DNA from: a virus
Direction: 5' to 3' (one strand)
Length of the DNA stretch: 10,956 bases
Virus genome (UHGV): UHGV-0334393
The position numbers and the translations under genes are program-made. Positions 78-10,956 of the stretch are shown one piece after another (within the stretch, counting starts at the first letter, position 1; every line of letters starts with the position of its first letter). The notes beneath the pieces were generated by a model. It was not told the origin of the DNA. It was given only the letters and a program-made list of their open reading frames with translations, and ran no database searches.

Positions 78-320
78 GCTTCGACATCCTTCGCAAATCT
101 TATACAAGTAAGATGGAATAAACCGGGGTCAGAGAGGGGGCTGTTCAAAACCTCGCCAACTCTAGAAATACAATTTAGAGAATTAGGGCGAGCCGTCAAG
201 CATTTGACAGGGGCCAGGGGGCAGGTATGAATCAAAAATTTGAAGCAGTTAACGCTATTGACAGGAATGTGACAGATGTCGCTGATGCCAACGATAGATG
301 ATAGTTATTTATCAGTTAGT

Positions 321-425
321 GTTCGTGGGTGTTCGTCATGGTATGGGTATCTCATTTATTTCTATGATTATAAAGGATAATTTCGTTTTTCTTGTTCGCC
401 CTTGTTCGTCACAGTTCGCCCTTGT
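321..425. repeat. Direct repeats upstream of int: GTTCGT at 321..326 and 331..336, TGTTCGTCA at 330..338 and 403..411, GTTCGCCCTTGT at 394..405 and 414..425. Candidate integrase arm-type or operator sites.
   Basis: Exact repeats read directly from the sequence; the two 12-mers start 20 bp apart. The function is inferred from their position just upstream of the integrase start. Confidence 0.4.
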
Positions 426-3499: not shown

Positions 3500-3799
3500 A
3501 TGAAACTTAAATATTCTGGCTTAACTGCCAGTGGCAACACTCACCCTAAATTTACGCGCGGTGATATTTACCGCGACCAGTACGGCGGCACGGTAATGAT
3601 TAAGGGCGTGGCGGGACGGTGCGTAACTTACCGCCGTGAAGGTTACGAATATGATTGCGTGATGCCTGTTTATCAGTTCCGGCGTGATTTTTCTCTGGTA
3701 CAGACCGCGCCGCATAACGTGCCCACCAGCAACGCCAGAGCACGGGCAAACATCCAGAAGCTGAAAACAATGATTAACGGATTCAGGGGTAAAAAATGA
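3500..3799 (+). CDS. Hypothetical protein (99 aa)
   Basis: GGAGA Shine-Dalgarno 9 nt upstream; its stop overlaps the primase start (ATGA). No recognisable homology. Confidence 0.6.
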   Translation: MKLKYSGLTASGNTHPKFTRGDIYRDQYGGTVMIKGVAGRCVTYRREGYEYDCVMPVYQFRRDFSLVQTAPHNVPTSNARARANIQKLKTMINGFRGKK

Positions 3800-5928
3800 A
3801 ACTGGCACCGAACGTAAAACAGCAGTCACGCGGCATAAAACACAAAGAAACAGAAGTCATTATTTTTGCGGGTAGTGATGCCTGGTCACACGCAAAACAA
3901 TGGCAGGAACATGACGCGCGTATGGCCGGAGATAATGAGCCTCCTGTGTGGCTTGGGGAGCAGCAGTTATCCGAACTGGATAAGCTGCAAATTGTGCCGG
4001 AAGGCAGAAAATCAGTACGCATATTCAGGGCCGGACATCTTGAGCCAGTAATGATCAAGGCGATTGGTCAGAAACTGGCGGCGGCAGGCGTACAGGATGC
4101 AAATTTTTACCCTGAGGGAATGCACGTTCAGAAGGTGGAGAACTGGCGCGAATATCTGGCCCGTGAGCGGCAGAATCTTTCTGATGGTCTGGTTATTGAG
4201 CTTCCGGTAAAGAAAAAAGATACCGGAAGTCATAGCGATGACGAATTAAAGCCACGCGTTGAAAGTCGCGCCGATGGTGTTTTCTGGGTAACGCCCAAAG
4301 TGGATAAGCAGTCAGGCGAAATTATCCGGCCTGAGACGTGGTTATGTTCTCCGCTTGAACTACTGGGAACGGGGACGATCGGTAAAGAGCATTACCGCGT
4401 GATGCGCTGGAAAAAAACCGCAAACCATGAAGTCATCACAATGGCGATCCCGTGTGGTGGTATCGGCGACCGTGACGGCTGGCGGTTACTTAAAGATCAC
4501 GGGCTGAACGTGACAACCAACGGCAAATACAGGGCAATCCTGGCGGACTGGATGCAGTTAAGCGGAAGCCATGAGGAATGGCAGTTAAGCACAACAACGG
4601 GCTGGCATTTTGGCGCGTACATCATGCCGGACGGTTCGATCATTGGTGATTCTGAAAAACCGATCCTGTTTACCGGAAAAAGCGCCGCGATTAACGGTTA
4701 TTCCGTGGCGGGTACGGCGGAGGGCTGGCGCGAGAGTGTGGCGCGGCTGGCTGGCGGTAATGCCTCAATGATGCTGGGTGTGGCAACGTCACTGGCAGCG
4801 CCTTTAATTGGCCTTGTGGGTGCTGACGGCTTCGGGGTGCATCTTTTCGAACAGTCATCGGCAGGTAAGACCACCACGCAGAACATCGCATCAAGTTTAT
4901 GGGGAGAGCCGGACGCGCAGCGGCTGACCTGGTACGGCACGGCGTTAGGTATTGCCAATGAGGCCGAGGCCCATAATGACGGGCTTTTACCACTGGATGA
5001 GATAGGCCAGGCCGGAAATGCGCGGGAAGTGTCAACGTCTGCTTATACGCTGTTTAACGGTTCAGGGAAATTGCAGGGGGCGAAGGATGGCGGCAACAGG
5101 GAGATCAAACACTGGCGAACGGTGGCAATCAGCACCGGAGAAATGGACGTTGAGACATTCCTCAAAAGTGAGGGGATAAAAGTTAAGGCGGGGCAGCTTG
5201 TCCGACTGCTTAACGTTCCGATGGAAAAAGCCACGAAATTTCACGAATACAGCAACGGTAAGGAACATGCTGACGCGTTAAAGGATGCCTGGACAGCAAA
5301 TCACGGGGCGGCGGGTCGTGAGTGGGTTAAATGGCTGGCAGGCCACCAGCAGGAGGCAAAGGACACGGTAAGGGAATGCCGCGAACGGTGGCGCAACCTG
5401 ATACCGGAGAGTTACGGCGAGCAGGTCCACCGCGTGGGTGAACGTTTCGCCATACTGGAGGCCGCGCTTGTGCTTTCCGGTCATGTAACTGGCTGGGTCG
5501 TGCAGGAATGCCGCGACGCGATACAGCATAACTTTAATGCCTGGGTGAAGGAGTTCGGCACGGGTAACAGGGAATTTAAACAGATGGTTGAACAGGCTGA
5601 GGCGTTTTTGTCGTCGTTTGGGTTTAGCCGCTACCTTCCGTACCCCAATACAGATGAGCGTGATTTACCGATTAAAGAGCTTGCCGGATACAGAAAAGGG
5701 AGCATTCGCAACGAAGATGACGAGATGCGCTATTACACGTTCCCGCACGTGTTTGAGAGTGAGATAGCGAAGGGATTTAATCCGGCGCATTTTGCGCGTG
5801 CCCTGGATGCTGCCGGAATGCTGGAGAAGGGAAGCGATCGCCGATACAAAAAAAAGGCGCTGGGCAAGATTGGGGGTAAGCAGCATGTTTTTTACGTGCT
5901 GATGTTCCAGCCTGATGATGAAGATTAA
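3796..5928 (+). CDS. Replication initiator, primase/helicase type (DUF927/D5-like; SF3-like ATPase domain)
   Basis: 710 aa. Walker A SSAGKTT and Walker B LLPLDEIG motifs in the central region. N-terminal region is consistent with a toprim/primase-like domain. An iteron origin lies immediately downstream, as in PICI pri-rep modules. Confidence 0.9.
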   Translation: MKLAPNVKQQSRGIKHKETEVIIFAGSDAWSHAKQWQEHDARMAGDNEPPVWLGEQQLSELDKLQIVPEGRKSVRIFRAGHLEPVMIKAIGQKLAAAGVQDANFYPEGMHVQKVENWREYLARERQNLSDGLVIELPVKKKDTGSHSDDELKPRVESRADGVFWVTPKVDKQSGEIIRPETWLCSPLELLGTGTIGKEHYRVMRWKKTANHEVITMAIPCGGIGDRDGWRLLKDHGLNVTTNGKYRAILADWMQLSGSHEEWQLSTTTGWHFGAYIMPDGSIIGDSEKPILFTGKSAAINGYSVAGTAEGWRESVARLAGGNASMMLGVATSLAAPLIGLVGADGFGVHLFEQSSAGKTTTQNIASSLWGEPDAQRLTWYGTALGIANEAEAHNDGLLPLDEIGQAGNAREVSTSAYTLFNGSGKLQGAKDGGNREIKHWRTVAISTGEMDVETFLKSEGIKVKAGQLVRLLNVPMEKATKFHEYSNGKEHADALKDAWTANHGAAGREWVKWLAGHQQEAKDTVRECRERWRNLIPESYGEQVHRVGERFAILEAALVLSGHVTGWVVQECRDAIQHNFNAWVKEFGTGNREFKQMVEQAEAFLSSFGFSRYLPYPNTDERDLPIKELAGYRKGSIRNEDDEMRYYTFPHVFESEIAKGFNPAHFARALDAAGMLEKGSDRRYKKKALGKIGGKQHVFYVLMFQPDDED

Positions 5929-5950
5929 TCCCCTGTGTGAGGAAAAAAAT

Positions 5951-6290
5951 TGCGGGTTATGCGGGTTATCCTGTGTATAAGTGTATTAAGTGCATGAATA
6001 TAAAGGAAACCAATAACCCGCACGTAACCCGCAAAAGGGCATTTATAACCCGCAAAAGCACGATTATAACCCGCAGGCGAATAACTGAAGTAACACCGGA
6101 CAGTCATGCGTAACCCGCAGAAAAAAAACCGTTTGCGGGTTATTTTGAGCGTTTTGCGGGTTACGTGGTGAGCAAATAATAAACAGGGTGTTTTGCAAAA
6201 TACTGATATAAAAGGATAAAAAATGGTTAGCACGCTAAGATAACCCAATAACCCGCATAACCCGCACATGTTTCTATATATATATAAATT
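5951..6290. repeat. Replication origin: iterons TAACCCGCA / TGCGGGTTA in both orientations (copies at 5951..5968, 6013..6075, 6111..6119, 6134..6164, 6241..6266) followed by a (TA)n unwinding-element-like tract (6275..6290)
   Basis: At least twelve copies of the 9-mer or close variants counted directly, with irregular spacing and an AT-rich tract. Located just downstream of the replication protein. Confidence 0.75.
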
Positions 6291-6300
6291 GAGGTGGCAA

Positions 6301-6552
6301 ATGACCAGAACACGCAGAGACAGAACAGAGCCAAAATATAAAGCGTTAGACATGACTGAGCACACCTTAAAGGTGGCAATCAGAACGATAGACCGCCACA
6401 CGCGGGAAGGATACGCGAAGGAACATCCCGACCTGATAAGCGCATTCATGACCACAGCGGCGGCAAACTTTGCCACGCTGACAGAACGGGAGATTGCCGA
6501 AGCGGAACAGGTAACAACCATCAACGTTAAAACCGGAGAGGTGGAATCATGA
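6301..6552 (+). CDS. Hypothetical protein (83 aa), translationally coupled to ssb
   Basis: GAGGTGG Shine-Dalgarno 5 nt upstream of the ATG at 6301. The tracked ORF start at 6268 lies inside the iterons and has no Shine-Dalgarno. Its stop overlaps the ssb start (ATGA). Confidence 0.6.
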   Translation: MTRTRRDRTEPKYKALDMTEHTLKVAIRTIDRHTREGYAKEHPDLISAFMTTAAANFATLTEREIAEAEQVTTINVKTGEVES

Positions 6553-6959
6553 CAGCACAGATAGCCGCTTACGGGCGGCTGGTGGACGACCCGCAGGTAA
6601 AACAGACCAGCAAGGGCACACCGATGACGCTGGCGCGTATGGCGGTCCCCCTTCCGTGCAGCCAGGCAGATGACGGAACGGCTACGTTATGGCTGTCCGT
6701 CATCGCATTTGGCAAGCAGGCCGACTTCCTGGCTAAACATCAAAAAGGCGACGTTGCCAGCGTATCTGGCGTGATGCAGATAAGCCAGTGGACCGGACAG
6801 AACGGGGAAACGCGGCAGGGTTATCAGGTTATTGCAGACAGCGTAATCAGTGCCCGTGCGGCACGTCCTGGCGGGAACAGACGCAAAACCACAGGCGCAC
6901 AGGGTAATCAGCCACCAGCGGGAGACGATGACCCCTACGGTGATGATATTCCGTTCTGA
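6549..6959 (+). CDS. ssb: Single-stranded DNA-binding protein (short SSB with OB fold and acidic C-terminal tip)
   Basis: 136 aa. Collinear similarity to E. coli SSB (GRLVDDPQVKQT..., W..VIAFGKQADFLAKHQKGD..., ...W.DQ.G..R) and the hallmark C-terminal DDIPF tail after a Gly/Pro/Gln-rich linker. Confidence 0.85.
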   Translation: MTAQIAAYGRLVDDPQVKQTSKGTPMTLARMAVPLPCSQADDGTATLWLSVIAFGKQADFLAKHQKGDVASVSGVMQISQWTGQNGETRQGYQVIADSVISARAARPGGNRRKTTGAQGNQPPAGDDDPYGDDIPF

Positions 6960-6967
6960 ACGCACAG

Positions 6968-6989
6968 GCCGGAGAAAATCCGGCTTTTT
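6968..6989 (+). terminator. Rho-independent terminator (stem GCCGGA / TCCGGC, loop GAAAA, then T5)
   Basis: Hairpin plus T-run immediately after the ssb stop codon. Confidence 0.7.
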
Positions 6990-6995
6990 GTACCC

Positions 6996-7038
6996 AAAAA
7001 AAGCCCGATAAGTACAGGAGGAAGCTTATCGGGCTTTT
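6996..7038. terminator. Bidirectional rho-independent terminator (10-bp stem GCCCGATAAG / CTTATCGGGC flanked by A7 and T4)
   Basis: Perfect 10-bp stem with a 12-nt loop; A-run on the 5' side and T-run on the 3' side. Confidence 0.6.
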
Positions 7039-7112
7039 GCTTACGAGGTTAACAGCATGGTGACTACTGTTGCTGTAAATCATTTCATAATTTGCAACGC
7101 AACTCAATTTTA

Positions 7113-7161
7113 TTGCGCAAAATGCAATCATGATTATAATCATGACTGGATGAACATCCAG
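7113..7161 (+). promoter_or_regulatory. Promoter P1 for the capsid operon: -35 TTGCGC (7113..7118), 16-bp spacer, -10 TATAAT (7135..7140) inside a perfect 18-bp palindrome TCATGATTATAATCATGA (7128..7145), followed by the inverted repeat CTGGATG-AA-CATCCAG (7146..7161)
   Basis: Hexamers and palindromes read directly; positioned about 55 bp upstream of the first capsid-operon start codon. The palindrome over the -10 suggests operator control. Confidence 0.55.
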
Positions 7162-7196
7162 TTATGATTTTTTAAGTCAAAGAGGAATTTCTGACT

Positions 7197-7403
7197 ATGG
7201 CAGAAGAGAAAAAAGGTGGTGTTTCGGTGTACATAAGCCCCGAAATCGTGGAGGTGCTCAAGCAGCGCCACAAAAAAAACTATGAGGCTGGCGTAGCGGC
7301 TGGACTGGATCCGCTGATGACGCCGGAGCCGTCGATAGGTTCACTTGTGCGCTCTTATTTACTTGCGGCGCTTGGGATGCATAAAAATTATGGGGGTGAA
7401 TAA
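7197..7403 (+). CDS. Hypothetical protein (68 aa), first gene of the capsid operon
   Basis: AGAGGA Shine-Dalgarno; stop overlaps the downstream start (TAATG). No recognisable homology. Confidence 0.6.
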   Translation: MAEEKKGGVSVYISPEIVEVLKQRHKKNYEAGVAAGLDPLMTPEPSIGSLVRSYLLAALGMHKNYGGE

Positions 7404-8458
7404 TGACAGGCAAAGCAACGGCACTTAACACTAACCAGCTTTTCATGTACCTGAATCGCGGGGATATTGCGGATTTTAAATTCAGCCCTCTGTTTACCAC
7501 GCTGTTTTTCCCGAACGTGGCGACATTCAGCACGCAAAACATCATGCTGGATACCCTGGACATTGAAGAAGTCACCATGTCGGCGTTTTGTTCGCCTATG
7601 GTTGGCAGCCAGGTACAGCGCGATAAAGGGTACGAAACCAGCACAATTAAACCTGGCTACATGAAGCCAAAGCACGAAATCGATCCAACGAAAACCATCA
7701 TGCGCATGGCTGGAGAAGATCCGGCACAGCTTAACGACCCTACCTACCGACGTATGCGCCTTATTACTGGCAACATGCGCCGCCAGATAAACGCCATTAA
7801 AGCGCGCGTGGAATGGCTGGCGGTGAATGCGATAACGACCGGAAAAAACATCATTGAGGGCGAAGGCATAGAACGCTATGAAATCGACTGGAAAATACCG
7901 GAAAACTGCATCATAGAGCAGGCCAAGGGTAAAAAATGGTCCGAGCATGATAAAGATATTTACGATCCAATCTATGACATCGAACTATACGCAGATCAGG
8001 CAGGTTGCCCCGCCAACGTCATGATTATGGGCGCTGAGGTATGGCGCACGTTACGCAGCTTTAAAAAATTCCGCGAACTGTACGATCTTTCCCGTGGTTC
8101 AGAATCCGCCGCAGAACTGGCCTGTAAAAACCTGGGTGAAGTAGTGAGCTTTAAAGGCTATCTGGGCGATATTGCCCTTATCGTCTATTCCGGCAAATAC
8201 ACTGACAGCGACGGTACCGAAAAATATTTCCTTGAGCCTGATTTGCTGGTCCTGGGTAACACCAACAACAAAGGGCTGGTGGCCTATGGTGCGATTATGG
8301 ATCAGGAAGCTGTAAGAACAGGCGCAACGCAAAACATGTACTACCCGAAAAACTGGATTGAGGACGGCGATCCGGCGATTGAGTACGTGCAGACGCACAG
8401 CGCACCGCAGCCGGTACCGGCAGACATTCGCAAATTTGTTACCGTCAAAATTGGTTAA
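7403..8458 (+). CDS. Major capsid protein, lambda gpE family
   Basis: 351 aa, collinear with lambda gpE (341 aa) from memory: FKFSPLFTTLFFPN vs FKFDPLFLRLFFRE; PGYMKPKHEIDP vs PGYVKPKHEVNP; YPKNWIEDGDPAIEYVQTHSAP vs YPKNWVTTGDPAREFTMIQSAP. Good Shine-Dalgarno (GGGGGTGA). Confidence 0.9.
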   Translation: MTGKATALNTNQLFMYLNRGDIADFKFSPLFTTLFFPNVATFSTQNIMLDTLDIEEVTMSAFCSPMVGSQVQRDKGYETSTIKPGYMKPKHEIDPTKTIMRMAGEDPAQLNDPTYRRMRLITGNMRRQINAIKARVEWLAVNAITTGKNIIEGEGIERYEIDWKIPENCIIEQAKGKKWSEHDKDIYDPIYDIELYADQAGCPANVMIMGAEVWRTLRSFKKFRELYDLSRGSESAAELACKNLGEVVSFKGYLGDIALIVYSGKYTDSDGTEKYFLEPDLLVLGNTNNKGLVAYGAIMDQEAVRTGATQNMYYPKNWIEDGDPAIEYVQTHSAPQPVPADIRKFVTVKIG

Positions 8459-8469
8459 CTGGGGATTCT

Positions 8470-8805
8470 ATGAACACTCCATACATTGAGTTATTTGCAG
8501 GCAGTCAGCAGGTATCAACGACGCTGGTACATTTTGCCGCTGATGCTGGCTTTATTCAGGAATTTACCCCGCTGATGCTGTCAGACAATGGCGAGTTTAA
8601 GCCGTGGGATGGTCAGGAATCTGGCAAGGCTGTTTATCTGACTTCGTACCCCGTGGACACGTCGACGCAGAAATCAGCACAGTGTTACAAGACGGGGATA
8701 TTTAATATCGCCGCCGTAAACTGGCCTGAGAGCGCCGACACTGACGCGAAAAAATGCGCCGCCTTTGCGGGTTCTGGCGTATCCGTTCAGCCGCTGGCGC
8801 GATAA
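8470..8805 (+). CDS. Head decoration protein, lambda gpD family
   Basis: 111 aa versus lambda gpD at 110 aa. Shared motifs TPLMLSDNGEFKPWDG vs TPLMLDTSSRKLVAWDG and KKCAAFAGSGVSVQ vs KKRTAFAGTAISIV. Immediately downstream of the gpE-like gene. Confidence 0.85.
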   Translation: MNTPYIELFAGSQQVSTTLVHFAADAGFIQEFTPLMLSDNGEFKPWDGQESGKAVYLTSYPVDTSTQKSAQCYKTGIFNIAAVNWPESADTDAKKCAAFAGSGVSVQPLAR

Positions 8806-8817
8806 GCAGGGGAAACG

Positions 8818-9231
8818 ATGGCAACGAATGAAAGCATCATGGCGCTACCGCTGGCGAGTAAATTTAAAGCAGAAGCGCGGGCAATGGCTGACAGAGGTTT
8901 ATCAACCTACGAGGCCGTATATCAACTCAACAAACTGGAAGAGCAGGACAAGCCGCGCGCTGATGCGATTATGGCGCTTCATGAACATAACGACTATCAG
9001 CCGCTGTTACGTGCAATGGCAAACGTGCCATGTATTAGCGTCGATAATGCTCGTGAAATCCTGAACATGACCATAGAGCAGGAGCGCCCAAAGGTTGCGC
9101 CGGAGCTTACCGCAGCCTTTGAAAACTTTATGGACATGCACAGCCCGAAAGCCGTATCACCCGGCATGGCATACGACGGCAGAAACCAGGGCGATGAAGG
9201 CGACGTCGATCGCATACTGAAAACCATCTGA
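8818..9231 (+). CDS. Hypothetical protein (137 aa), last gene of the capsid operon
   Basis: AGGGGAA Shine-Dalgarno; followed directly by a terminator. No convincing similarity to lambda FI, W or Nu3 by eye. Confidence 0.7.
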   Translation: MATNESIMALPLASKFKAEARAMADRGLSTYEAVYQLNKLEEQDKPRADAIMALHEHNDYQPLLRAMANVPCISVDNAREILNMTIEQERPKVAPELTAAFENFMDMHSPKAVSPGMAYDGRNQGDEGDVDRILKTI

Positions 9232-9237
9232 CATAAG

Positions 9238-9260
9238 GCCGGAGAAATCCGGCTTTTTTT
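9238..9260 (+). terminator. Rho-independent terminator (stem GCCGGA / TCCGGC, loop GAAA, T7); near-identical copy of the hairpin at 6968..6989
   Basis: Hairpin plus T7 run 7 nt after the stop of the 137-aa ORF. Confidence 0.75.
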
Positions 9261-9330
9261 ACGGGTCCTTTCCGGCATATGGACCCGTTACGGGGCGGCG
9301 ACCTCGCGCGTTTTCGCTATTTATGAGCCT
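9261..9330 (+). other. cos site 1 (plus orientation): lambda-like cosQ (9261..9292), cosN 12-nt cohesive-end sequence GGGCGGCGACCT (9293..9304), and the start of cosB (CGCGCGTTTTCGCTATTTATGA), diverging after about 9328
   Basis: ACGGGTCCTTTCCGG...GTTACG|GGGCGGCGACCT|CGCG.GTTTTCGCTATTTATGA matches the lambda right-end/left-end junction as recalled. Downstream sequence up to the terS start differs from lambda cosB. Confidence 0.8.
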
Positions 9331-9437: not shown

Positions 9438-9980
9438 ATGAAATCGCACCTGATGAACAAAAAAAACATGGCGAAAAGCTGCCGTGTAAGTGCGACAGCG
9501 TTCGACAAGTGGGGAGTGACTCCCGTTGAACGTAAAGGCCGTGAGGCGTTTTATGATGTTGCCAGCGTGATAGACAATAGGGTTAACAATGCAATTAGCC
9601 AGCTTACAAACGACAAAGGCGATATTGATGATGATGAACTCTTACGAGTCAGGATCAGATTACTGACAGCACAGGCGGAGGCGCAGGAACTTAAAAACGA
9701 GCGCGATCGCGGTGACGTGATTGATACTGAGTTTTGCCTGTACGCGCTTTCAAAGCTGGCGAGTCAGATTTCATCAATCATGGACAGCCTCCCGCTTACT
9801 ATGCAAAGGAGCTTCCCACAGATTACCCCCGCCATGCTGGACAGGCTTAAAAGGGAAGTGGTTAAAGCCTGTAATGCCAGTGCCAGAGTTGCCGACAACC
9901 TCCCACAGATACTGGCTGATTACTTGAAAGAAACAACCGGAAACGTACCGGAAAAGTTGCTACAGAAGAAAGGCAAGTAA
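9438..9980 (+). CDS. Terminase small subunit, lambda Nu1 family (island-encoded TerS)
   Basis: 180 aa versus Nu1 at 181 aa. Strong central similarity: LLTAQAEAQELKNERDRGDVIDTEFCLYALSKLASQISSIMDSLPLTMQRSFPQI vs Nu1 LTRAQADAQELKNARDSAEVVETAFCTFVLSRIAGEIASILDGLPLSVQRRFPEL. The N-terminal HTH region is also alignable (NKK..., YD.A.VI). Lies directly downstream of cos 1, as in lambda. Confidence 0.85.
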   Translation: MKSHLMNKKNMAKSCRVSATAFDKWGVTPVERKGREAFYDVASVIDNRVNNAISQLTNDKGDIDDDELLRVRIRLLTAQAEAQELKNERDRGDVIDTEFCLYALSKLASQISSIMDSLPLTMQRSFPQITPAMLDRLKREVVKACNASARVADNLPQILADYLKETTGNVPEKLLQKKGK

Positions 9981-10006: not shown

Positions 10007-10202
10007 GAGAAAGGATCTGATAATGGCATTTTCTGGCTAAAATGCCTCGTGTCAGATCCTTTCTTTTTTTAATATTTTCATTGTTAAACAGTCTGTTACA
10101 GAGAAGAAGAACGGATCTGACTTTTGCCGGAAAATTTTCATAAACAGATAAAAACCGCGAGGTCGCCGCCCCGTAACGGGCCATAATTCCAGGAAGGACC
10201 CG
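10007..10202 (-). other. cos site 2 (minus orientation): cosQ-like (10172..10202), cosN (complement of 10160..10171), and a canonical lambdoid cosB with three R-site-like repeats (AGAAAGGATCTGA 10008..10020, TCAGATCCTTTCT 10052..10064, AGAACGGATCTGA 10108..10120) and an AT-rich IHF-like segment
   Basis: The reverse complement reads GGGCGGCGACCTCGCGGTTTTTATCTGTTTATGAAAATTTTCCGG...CCGTTCTTCTTC..., near-collinear with the recalled lambda left end through cosB. The middle repeat is inverted relative to the outer two. Confidence 0.8.
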
Positions 10203-10235: not shown

Positions 10236-10517
10236 ATGACAGAAGCCGAAATACTGGGATTAATCCGCCGCGTTGCCGGAATCAGCCAGCAGGTTGACGA
10301 ACAGGCCACGCAGCCGGACAGCGTGACCGCTGAAAATTATGCGCGTGTTGTTGCGGAGGTGATGCGCCGTGATGGTATAGAACTTAATGGCGTGGATATG
10401 CGCAACATACGAACCAGAGTTCTTGAGTTGCTGGCCTACCGTCGCCGTGTGGAGATGTATCGGGAGAAGGAGAAAATAACGTACCACTGGAAGAAGCCGG
10501 AGCGGTTGCGGCGGTAA
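10236..10517 (+). CDS. Hypothetical protein (93 aa)
   Basis: GGGGG-type Shine-Dalgarno 6 nt upstream of the ATG; plausible amino-acid composition; no recognisable homology. Confidence 0.5.
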   Translation: MTEAEILGLIRRVAGISQQVDEQATQPDSVTAENYARVVAEVMRRDGIELNGVDMRNIRTRVLELLAYRRRVEMYREKEKITYHWKKPERLRR

Positions 10518-10719
10518 CTGGTTGATATTCCCGACGGACCAAAAATGGGTGGCTACATCCCTCGCTTCTGAGGACTGTTAACAAGCTGCCTGAAAGACAG
10601 TCACAAACTACGAAATTTTCGCAGTTTAATTAATGATCAGCTTAATCGCTAACCCGCTGATATTTTCGGAAACCTCAATTTGAGGAAGTCGGCGCGGTAA
10701 CTCGCTGAACTTTAAGCAA

Positions 10720-10768
10720 AGCGCAAAATTGCGCTTGCTGAATAATCATTATGATTACGCAGATGATT
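10720..10768 (+). promoter_or_regulatory. P1-like regulatory region: inverted repeat AGCGCAA-AA-TTGCGCT (10720..10735), inverted repeat TAATCAT-T-ATGATTA (10743..10757), and a further ATGATTA (10762..10768)
   Basis: Shares the GCGCAAAAT(T)GC and ATGATTA/TAATCAT motifs with P1 at 7113..7145. Sits just upstream of a Shine-Dalgarno (AAGGA) and an ATG at 10774. Confidence 0.4.
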
Positions 10769-10810
10769 AAGGAATGACCGAAGGCGGAAATTCGCCTGTG
10801 GTTAATGGGG

Positions 10811-10923
10811 GAGTTGCAGATCTGCAACTCGACCATGAAATTACGGAAACTACCCGTAGTTTGGGTAGTAAGAGCAACACCCAGATTTTGGGGCTTACTC
10901 GTGATACCCAAATTTGGGGTATC
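10811..10923. repeat. Palindrome cluster: perfect 20-bp palindrome GAGTTGCAGATCTGCAACTC (10811..10830) followed by three related dyads of the form ACCC-N6/7-GGGT (10849..10870, 10878..10897, 10903..10923) spaced about 27 bp apart
   Basis: Symmetry checked by manual reverse-complementing. These overlap the tracked ORFs 10774..10956 (+) and 10675..10935 (-), whose coding status is therefore doubtful. Confidence 0.5.
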
Positions 10924-10956
10924 GGCGGCAACCATAACGACTTTCGTTACGGTTGA

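Follow-up and report, generated by a model that had tools for sequence, protein, structure and literature searches.

SaPI operon 1, the packaging operon of the staphylococcal phage-inducible chromosomal islands (PICIs), is under LexA repression and is switched on by a late activator of the helper, and in the immI region of phage P22 the promoter Pant is controlled through Arc and Mnt operators, with a palindromic operator lying over the -10 and start region. Antitermination cassettes control late genes in the lambda PR'-QBE-tR' and Pseudomonas aeruginosa PalpB-ABE-tB systems (PMC7969949, PMC9371919). EcCICFT073, a PICI of Escherichia coli CFT073 and the Gram-negative prototype, has AlpA as its essential helper-induced activator (PMC6092414), for which no binding site has been described, and is known to have two cos sites (PMC6092414, PMC6739421). 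Here we analyze UHGV virus genome UHGV-0334393, a stretch of 10,956 nt that we refer to in its entirety as the window, and which is an EcCICFT073-type PICI, a Gram-negative phage satellite. The initial annotation of this DNA had proposed that a capsid-operon promoter at 7090-7165 (site 1) shares a motif set with a second promoter at 10712-10770 (site 2), and that a single factor co-regulates the two.

The window has the same gene order as EcCICFT073 (int, alpA, primase, ssb, capsid module, two cos sites, and a Nu1-like protein), and the promoter cassettes of the two islands are 95% identical. They differ in that EcCICFT073 carries perC between ssb and the promoter whereas the window does not, in a rare perfect 18-bp palindrome that belongs to the window, and in the form of a right-end module, which is V3 in EcCICFT073 and V1 in the window (see below). 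As with SaPI operon 1, this is a satellite morphogenesis operon with a regulated promoter of its own, apart from the replication module; unlike SaPI operon 1, there is no E. coli LexA box at site 1, and the sequences are unrelated. A LexA box was considered and rejected on spacing, as the variant core reads CTG-N8-CAG rather than CTG-N10-CAG. Our overall reading, to which we assign a probability of about 0.5, is that site 1 is a sigma-70 promoter of the capsid operon set within an insulating terminator, and that site 2 consists of hairpins that are not a promoter.

A probable capsid operon promoter

The promoter motifs noted at 7090-7165 are present exactly as described, with TTGCGC at 7113-7118, a 16-nt spacer, and TATAAT at 7135-7140, and from the position of the -10 we infer that transcripts start at about 7145-7149. 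The features of site 1 and of the unit behind it are as follows.

6966-7040, + strand: two terminator hairpins after ssb, 5' of the promoter, the second of which is kept in the relatives examined.
7083-7097, + strand: upstream dyad TTTCA-TAATT-TGCAA, at about -64 to -50 relative to the probable start and part of the invariant box ATTTCATAATTTGCAAC.
7113-7127, + strand: second dyad TTGCG-CAAAA-TGCAA, 30 bp after the first, over the -35 TTGCGC and the spacer.
7128-7145: palindrome TCATGA-TTATAA-TCATGA (segments A and B), composed of three self-complementary hexamers.
7135-7140, + strand: -10 hexamer TATAAT, 16 nt after TTGCGC, with GATTATAATC nearly invariant.
7138-7173, + strand: hairpin B:C, with arms at 7138-7152 and 7155-7169 and a T run at 7168-7173, picked up in a scan for terminators.
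7180-7199, + strand: Shine-Dalgarno sequence AAGAGGAA (invariant in alignment A3) and ATG of the first gene.
7197-9231, + strand: four-gene unit encoding a 68-aa protein, the major capsid protein, a decoration protein, and a 137-aa protein, orthologues of c1498-c1501.
9239-9259, + strand: terminator GGCCGGAGAAATCCGGC plus T7, a member of repeat family D10 that closes the unit immediately ahead of the first cos.

The stretch from 7078 to 7200 is found in 620 of 5426 complete E. coli genomes (~11%), CFT073 included at 95% identity, and site 1 is also present in 88 viral contigs. Across the 47 distinct sequences of alignment A3, the box ATTTCATAATTTGCAAC, ATTGC, and AAAATG together with the last A of GCAA are invariant; the other two GCAA bases vary in <10% of sequences, GATTATAATC is invariant except for three bases that likewise vary in <10%, and the two bases following TTGC vary freely. 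The -10 reads TAAAAT in islands of the L005 type, and TATAAT in Salmonella relatives and in one capsid-forming PICI. In the Salmonella relatives, with a first protein of ~55% identity, the box is retained together with TTGCGAAAAATGCAA, ATGATTATAATCAT, and the hairpin and its T run. The capsid-forming PICI, whose capsid module is unrelated and of the HK97 type, shares the box, the -35 dyad, TATAAT, and the spacing of 16 nt, and lacks both the palindrome arms and the 3' arm of the hairpin. The conserved unit is therefore the promoter core. A -35 TTGC, a 16-nt spacing, and a -10 are thus common to the E. coli and Salmonella versions and to the capsid-forming PICI. These are hexamers within the 16-18 bp separation of sigma-70 promoters and conserved in relatives, although the -35 matches at only three of six bases. 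A consensus promoter scan did not report site 1, of which the -35 agrees at only those three positions, and was uninformative in any case, with 14 sites in the window against 14.4 in shuffles. The region of site 1 has 31% G+C, compared with 48% for the whole window. The symmetry of TATAAT raises the prospect of a promoter on the minus strand, which we rejected because its -35 matches at two of six positions and there is nothing to transcribe; a phage origin of the cassette was likewise rejected, with no significant match in 50,697 phage records.

Expression data for CFT073 bear directly on the extent of the unit. In RNA sequencing of cultures at 37 and 23°C, the log2 changes of c1498, c1499, c1500, and c1501 (2.24, 2.05, 1.45, and 1.17) are all significant (PMC12890032 supplement), whereas those of the primase (0.31), c1496 (0.36), ssb (0.24), c1503 (0.33), and c1505 (0.58) are not, nor is that of perC (1.89) (PMC12890032). 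The four orthologues therefore rise 2.2- to 4.7-fold at 37°C in uninduced CFT073 while the flanking island genes are unchanged, and the expression unit runs from beyond ssb/perC to the terminator at 9239-9259. The joint change of c1498-c1501, not followed by their neighbors, speaks for an autonomous promoter at site 1, and the data further show that in CFT073 the capsid unit is expressed and temperature responsive without deliberate helper induction. With the conserved core and this joint change in expression, the annotation of site 1 as the capsid operon promoter is very probably correct. The A/T richness and the response between 23 and 37°C would fit silencing by H-NS; H-NS silencing and a structural switch are both candidates for the temperature response of c1498-c1501.

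A terminator-like hairpin overlapping the -10

The inverted repeat reported directly after the palindrome, CTGGATG-AA-CATCCAG, is indeed present at 7146-7161, and it forms the top of a longer repeat. The resulting hairpin B:C has 15-nt arms that are 93% complementary, followed by six T residues, and its 5' arm begins inside the -10, such that the right half of the palindrome (segment B) is also the 5' arm of the hairpin. The predicted fold has a free energy of -19.9 kcal/mol (z = -5.4). Among relatives, 96.5% of alignment cells are paired and three pairs have changed on both sides, with the fully compensated variants AATTATAAC/GTTATAATT, AATCACAAC/GTTGTGATT, and AATCAGGAC/GTCCTGATT, and a further variant, AATCAGAGC/GTTCTGATT, in which one G-U wobble is left. 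These covariation counts are uncorrected for shared ancestry; the compensated variants stand on different backgrounds, which suggests several independent events. There are 21 G-U wobble cells, which would be C-A mismatches on the other strand; because such wobbles are tolerable only in the + strand, they point to an RNA of the + strand. The hairpin is kept in Salmonella despite an insertion. Site 1 therefore has a stable hairpin, a U run, and compensatory changes, the hallmarks of an intrinsic terminator, and termination itself is predicted. Rfam covariance models gave no match at either site 1 or site 2.

The perfect 18-bp palindrome around the -10, TCATGATTATAATCATGA, is found at 7128-7145 as annotated, and its conservation is more limited. 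Only 2 of 56 distinct sequences have the perfect form, and a core of 14 bp is usual; the outer pair (columns 50-65 of the alignment) is unpaired in 34 of 47 sequences, leaving that core, and the pair at columns 51-64 covaries (A-T in 24, C-G in 12, and other combinations in 11). Spacer-less palindromes with arms of at least 9 nt arise in 5.4% of first-order Markov-randomized windows, and a perfect palindrome is thus unusual, and not decisive on its own. Because the palindrome is made of self-complementary hexamers, part of its symmetry comes free with TATAAT, and part with the need of segment B to pair with segment C.

Site 1 belongs to a conserved cassette of ~95 bp that comprises the two dyads (one at about -57 and one over the -35), the -10 at the center of the palindrome, and hairpin B:C, and we propose that it works as follows. 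RNA arriving from the upstream replication genes would hold both arms and would terminate at the 14- to 15-bp hairpin and U6, before the ribosome-binding site. RNA initiated at the promoter itself would begin inside the 5' arm (about 7145-7149), so that the full terminator could not form; it would keep the apical 7-bp stem as a 5' stem-loop (-9.3 kcal/mol) and read into the operon. The capsid genes would thus be insulated from early transcription and dependent on their own promoter. The compensatory changes in the lower stem are understandable only if there is upstream RNA of this kind and its termination matters. The nested terminator would be the third in line, after the two at 6966-7040.

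The overlap of the palindrome with the hairpin can also be read as an attenuator, in which an RNA starting 5' of 7128 would contain segments A, B, and C, pairing of A with B would rival formation of the B:C terminator, and whether transcription enters the operon would depend on temperature or on an antitermination factor. Such RNA could come from a weak promoter (TTGCAA at 7092-7097, a 20-bp spacer, and CAAAAT at 7118-7123), from whose start the upstream dyad would lie at about -40, or from antiterminated read-through. The three-way complementarity, with covariation in both A:B and B:C, is consistent with this, as are the + strand wobble pairs, which imply an RNA containing segment B, and the 4- to 5-fold higher expression of the capsid operon at 37 than at 23°C. 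Nonetheless, the upstream promoter is poor by sigma-70 rules, the A:B pairing (7-9 A/U-rich pairs) is far weaker than that of B:C (-20 kcal/mol), the upstream ssb gene is not co-regulated, and there is no conserved -10-like pause element; moreover, the island AlpA (68 aa, PF05930) has no sequence match to the antiterminator AlpA of P. aeruginosa. We therefore regard an attenuator as unlikely. A broader version has segments A (7128-7136), B (7137-7145), and C (7162-7169) forming a nucleic acid switch around the -10, either terminator/antiterminator or cruciform, that would gate the capsid operon and underlie its rise at 37 relative to 23°C, with site 2 as a second such switch. Site 2 does show the same one-plus-two arrangement of complementary segments, and we judge this version to be decidedly improbable.

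The described antitermination cassettes resemble site 1 in having a strong -10, a conserved element between the -35 and the -10, and a terminator right before the first late gene. They differ in that the site 1 hairpin has its 5' arm ahead of the predicted start, and in that site 1 has no conserved -10-like pause and the island encodes no Q homologue. Measured against a Q-type or P. aeruginosa AlpA-type cassette, site 1 has a conserved dyad; as a -10-like pause element, GAACAT agrees at three of six positions and is not conserved. Antitermination of the P. aeruginosa AlpA type was rejected on the absence of a sequence match of the island AlpA, which matched only PDB entry 8c3t and not the P. 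aeruginosa protein, as well as on the pause element and the position of the terminator. The stem of lambda tR' starts with GCAAAATGCAATC and ends with GATTTTTTA, like the hairpin region of site 1, and lambda 44717-44780 (positions 318-380 of L249) shares a 13-mer with 7117-7129 and a 9-mer with 7166-7174 of the window. Homology to tR' was rejected, because the viral contigs show only two families with no intermediates, and a 12-mer is lost in Salmonella and in the capsid-forming PICI; the likeness is probably due to chance.

Candidate regulator sites at the promoter

The two 15-bp dyads, TTKCA-N5-TGCAA, are the likeliest candidate sites for a dimeric regulator. The upstream dyad corresponds to TTGCA-N5-TGCAA with one mismatch, within a box that is invariant in the 47 distinct sequences, and in Salmonella it reads TTTCATAATTTACAAC. 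Direct reading of alignment A3 shows no compensatory changes in either dyad, indicating that they are conserved as sequence rather than as structure. No further copies of the dyads or of the box were found within the island beyond those expected by chance. We note that CFT073, O157, and most relatives have perC in the interval from ssb to the capsid promoter (window 6959-7080 compared with L001 10950-11340), and that the gene is absent from the window and from L005-type islands, where the promoter cassette and the dyads are unchanged; PerC is thus not obligatory.

A second possibility is that the palindrome serves as an operator through which the first gene product, a 68-aa protein that would resemble ribbon-helix-helix (RHH) proteins, negatively regulates its own operon, in the manner of Arc at P22 Pant. 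The P22 immI region is similar in having an operator-like palindrome over the -10, with the small first-gene protein here one that could feed back, and dissimilar in that the RHH fold of the 68-aa protein is weakly suggested and its binding putative. An AlphaFold2 model has an extended N-terminus followed by two helices (mean pLDDT, 74), and there are weak Pfam matches to BrnA_antitoxin (E = 0.017) and RHH_1 (E = 0.15), each in 3 of 12 family members. In addition, the 14-bp core of the palindrome is kept and has one covarying pair, and the capsid-forming PICI lacks both an annotated small first gene and the palindrome arms. Set against this are the lack of a significant fold or sequence match to solved RHH proteins (Foldseek returned none), the occurrence of one protein allele with different palindrome variants, the outer pair that is unpaired in 34 of 47 sequences, and the part of the symmetry that comes free from TATAAT and from pairing of B with C. 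Autoregulation by this protein is accordingly a possibility that we consider rather unlikely.

Scored against the 19-bp Fur consensus GATAATGATAATCATTATC, each of the two sites agrees at 14/19 positions, and each can be written as an array of NATWAT hexamers, such that they could be Fur boxes through which iron regulates the island. Three sites within coding sequences of the window match equally well at 14/19, and the match is not conserved: the V2 form of site 2 (below) scores ~10/19 by hand count, and O157-type promoters change bases within it. Variation at the sites also follows base pairing. We rejected Fur boxes on these grounds, and iron regulation through them is extremely improbable.

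Site 2 and the question of co-regulation

The words that gave rise to the comparison of the two sites are present at site 2, namely GCGCAAAATTGCGC at 10721-10734, TAATCAT at 10743-10749, ATGATTA at 10751-10757 and 10763-10769, and an ATG at 10774. The heptamer ATGATTA is also enriched in the window, with nine copies on both strands compared with 1.5 expected, and because none of 200 shuffles reaches nine, the resemblance of the sites is not noise. The claim of a shared motif set holds to this extent, and fails in that the dyad is inverted (TAATCAT-T-ATGATTA at site 2, ATGATTA-TAATCAT at site 1) and in that GCGCAAAAT at site 1 is specific to the window, the relatives reading GCACAAAAT, GCATAAAAT, or GCTCAAAAT. 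The cos sites were ruled out as the meaning of the two copies, as they lie at 9293 and 10160, away from both motif sites. The structures at site 2 are as follows.

10715-10739, + strand: hairpin 1, AGCAA-A-GCGCAA-AA-TTGCGC-TTGCT, from folding.
10738-10769, + strand: hairpin 2, CTG-AA-TAATCAT-T-ATGATTA-CG-CAG, then a third ATGATTA at 10763-10769.

The stem of hairpin 1 covaries among copies (GCGCAA/TTGCGC, GCTCAA/TTGAGC, ACGCAA/TTGCGT, CCTCAA/TTGAG, and GTGCAA/TTGCGC). Hairpin 2 occurs in three versions, TAATCAT/ATGATTA (V1), TGGTCAT-A-ATGACCA (V2), and a degraded form (V3), with 98.6% of cells paired and three covarying pairs, these coming from only three lineages. Site 2 lies within a degenerate noncoding module that is present once in the window and in up to three copies in relatives (L002, 14403-14832). 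Among the 48 loci with at least 3.8 kb after the promoter, V1 is found in 13, V2 in 14, V3 in 7, and none in 15 (one locus has V1 and V2); the 21 loci with V2 or V3 carry compensatory changes, any version can accompany any promoter variant, and site 2 is absent from the Salmonella relatives.

The proposal that site 2 is a second promoter in front of a start codon was not borne out. The best hexamer pair is TTGCGC-15-TATGAT, there is no well-spaced -35/-10 pair, no promoter geometry is conserved, and the ATG at 10774, abutted by a Shine-Dalgarno-like AAGGA, is not kept in other copies of the module. The open reading frame (ORF) that it would start has no PHROG or family match and is not conserved, as its start is missing in other copies of the module and an in-frame TGA is present in other copies of the downstream element. 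For an assessment of coding potential, 10774-10956 offered only 14 variable sites, distributed 6/2/6 by codon position. Site 2 is instead two structure-conserved hairpins in a modular, noncoding right end, and is not a promoter.

In its strongest form, the co-regulation proposal holds that one island- or helper-encoded factor acts on the ATGATTA/TAATCAT dyads and GCGCAAAAT, controlling both the capsid operon and a unit starting at 10774. The 6-fold enrichment of the heptamer, with five of its nine copies at the two sites, is in keeping with this, as is the association of V1 with ATGATTA-type promoters in 12 of 13 cases, and the 8-mers ATAATCAT and TTATGATT are common to the arms of the site 1 hairpin and to site 2. 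The comparison across related islands does not sustain it, with site 2 in V1 form in only 13 of 48 loci, absent or different in the other 35 and in Salmonella, and with its versions mixing freely with the promoter variants; the same words in the same arrangement at both sites are not found across islands. Islands with V2 have TGGTCAT/ATGACCA at site 2, yet their promoters read CTGATTA or ATGATTA. Also against it are the window-specific GCGCAAAAT, the differing orientation of the dyad, and the unconserved ORF at 10774, and in CFT073, which has V3, the right-end gene c1505 does not follow c1498-c1501. Finally, variation at both sites follows base pairing, and the dyads at both sites behave as base-paired structures and not as a shared protein recognition sequence. 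Co-regulation of the two sites by one factor is thus very unlikely.

The shared 8-mers may have another source. Through ATAATCAT and TTATGATT, V1 hairpin 2 corresponds to the outer stem of the site 1 hairpin without its inner CTGGATG stem, and roughly one in four relatives has 8-mers common to the site 2 hairpins and the arms of the hairpin at site 1. The correspondence is a hint of an old, partial duplication event and not of a common operator.

Several other elements are found in the right end. A conserved element of ~110 nt at 10811-10925 is predicted to form four hairpins, among them the perfect 20-bp palindrome GAGTTGCAGATCTGCAACTC. The element is found in several settings, capsid-forming PICIs included, and has no Rfam match, with too little variation to judge covariation. 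Matches to the region from 10600 to 10956 are present in 1334 of 5426 E. coli genomes, and in many of these they are confined to the element. The sequences GGTAACTnGyTGA / CTAACCCGyTGA occur three times in the window (10507-10530, 10641-10665, and 10689-10713) and six times in L002 (14350-14793), each beside a variable hairpin. Positions 10658-10692 are identical at 32 of 35 bases to the antisense strand of roi of lambdoid phages (HK620, H-19B, and Stx phages), such that RNA transcribed from the + strand in this part of the island would be able to pair with the roi message.

Identity and gene content of the island

The assignment of the window to the EcCICFT073 type is based on Pfam matches, two exact cosN sequences, attL and attR repeats, and the 95% identity to the promoter region of CFT073. 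It has the layout expected of such a satellite, in that the integrase, alpA, and primase genes run in one direction, cos sites and an attachment site of its own are present, and tail and lysis genes are lacking. The window is matched over at least 80% of its length by five E. coli genomes. The island is inserted between cspD/yljB and clpS, and attL and attR are direct repeats between yljB and clpS, with the attL core at 444-460 and attR ~510 bp past the end of the window. Its genes are as follows.

482-1720: integrase (Pfam).
2133-2339: AlpA, 68 aa, PF05930 (Pfam).
3796-5928: DUF927 primase (Pfam).
6549-6959: SSB (Pfam).
7197-7403, + strand: 68-aa protein, first gene of the capsid operon.
7403-8458, + strand: lambda E-like major capsid protein (Pfam/PHROG).
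8470-8805, + strand: gpD-like decoration protein (Pfam/PHROG).
8818-9231, + strand: 137-aa protein.
9438-9980: Nu1-like protein.
10236-10517: 93-aa protein.

The lambda cosN 12-mer GGGCGGCGACCT is present in two exact copies in inverted orientation, at 9293-9304 (+ strand) and 10160-10171 (- strand), one before and one after the Nu1-like gene, which fits the two cos sites known for EcCICFT073. The 137-aa protein has a match (E = 1.5e-9) to the C-terminal portion of phrog_53, a head-maturation-protease family of PHROG, which would fit a scaffold like lambda Nu3. A probable early promoter, TTGACA-17-TTAATC, with two copies of the palindrome TGTGCGCACA, is located at 2949-2990 between the divergent YlcI-like and Icd-like genes. 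Iterons (TAACCCGCA / TGCGGGTTA) at 5950-6260, 3' of the primase gene, are presumably the replication origin, and TTGTTCG repeats adjoining both attachment-site cores (window 319-411; L001 15340-15380) are likely arm-type sites of the integrase.

Discussion

In kind, site 1 is unremarkable, being a sigma-70 promoter with candidate regulator sites close by in a known satellite family, and the question is how well its placement within an insulating terminator accounts for what is seen. Several observations weigh against it. The base of the hairpin stem is A/U-rich and not ideal for an intrinsic terminator, the L005-type hairpin is weak (-7.7 kcal/mol, z = -0.6), and the capsid-forming PICI has a version of the promoter with no terminator. 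Two good terminators are already present upstream at 6966-7040, making a third look redundant. Insulation alone also leaves unexplained why the A:B palindrome covaries at one pair. As to site 2, chance alone is unlikely to have put the same heptamer into the arms of two hairpins in a single island; its presence in both could reflect a shared origin or a factor shared within a sub-lineage.

In the searchable literature, we found no description of this promoter cassette, of the two dyads, or of the terminator that has its 5' arm over the -10 and is maintained by compensatory changes, nor of how the capsid and packaging genes of Gram-negative PICIs are switched on. The transcription unit is now defined, with a promoter, a leader hairpin, four genes, and a terminator, and two invariant dyads are named as candidate regulator sites, while a tempting regulon link that would tie the promoter to the island's right end is removed as unsupported. 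This provides a precise target for reporter and footprinting work, including the reported response to temperature. Gram-negative PICIs are widespread, the cassette alone being present in ~11% of complete E. coli genomes, and in these islands a promoter within a terminator would keep the capsid genes independent of early transcription.

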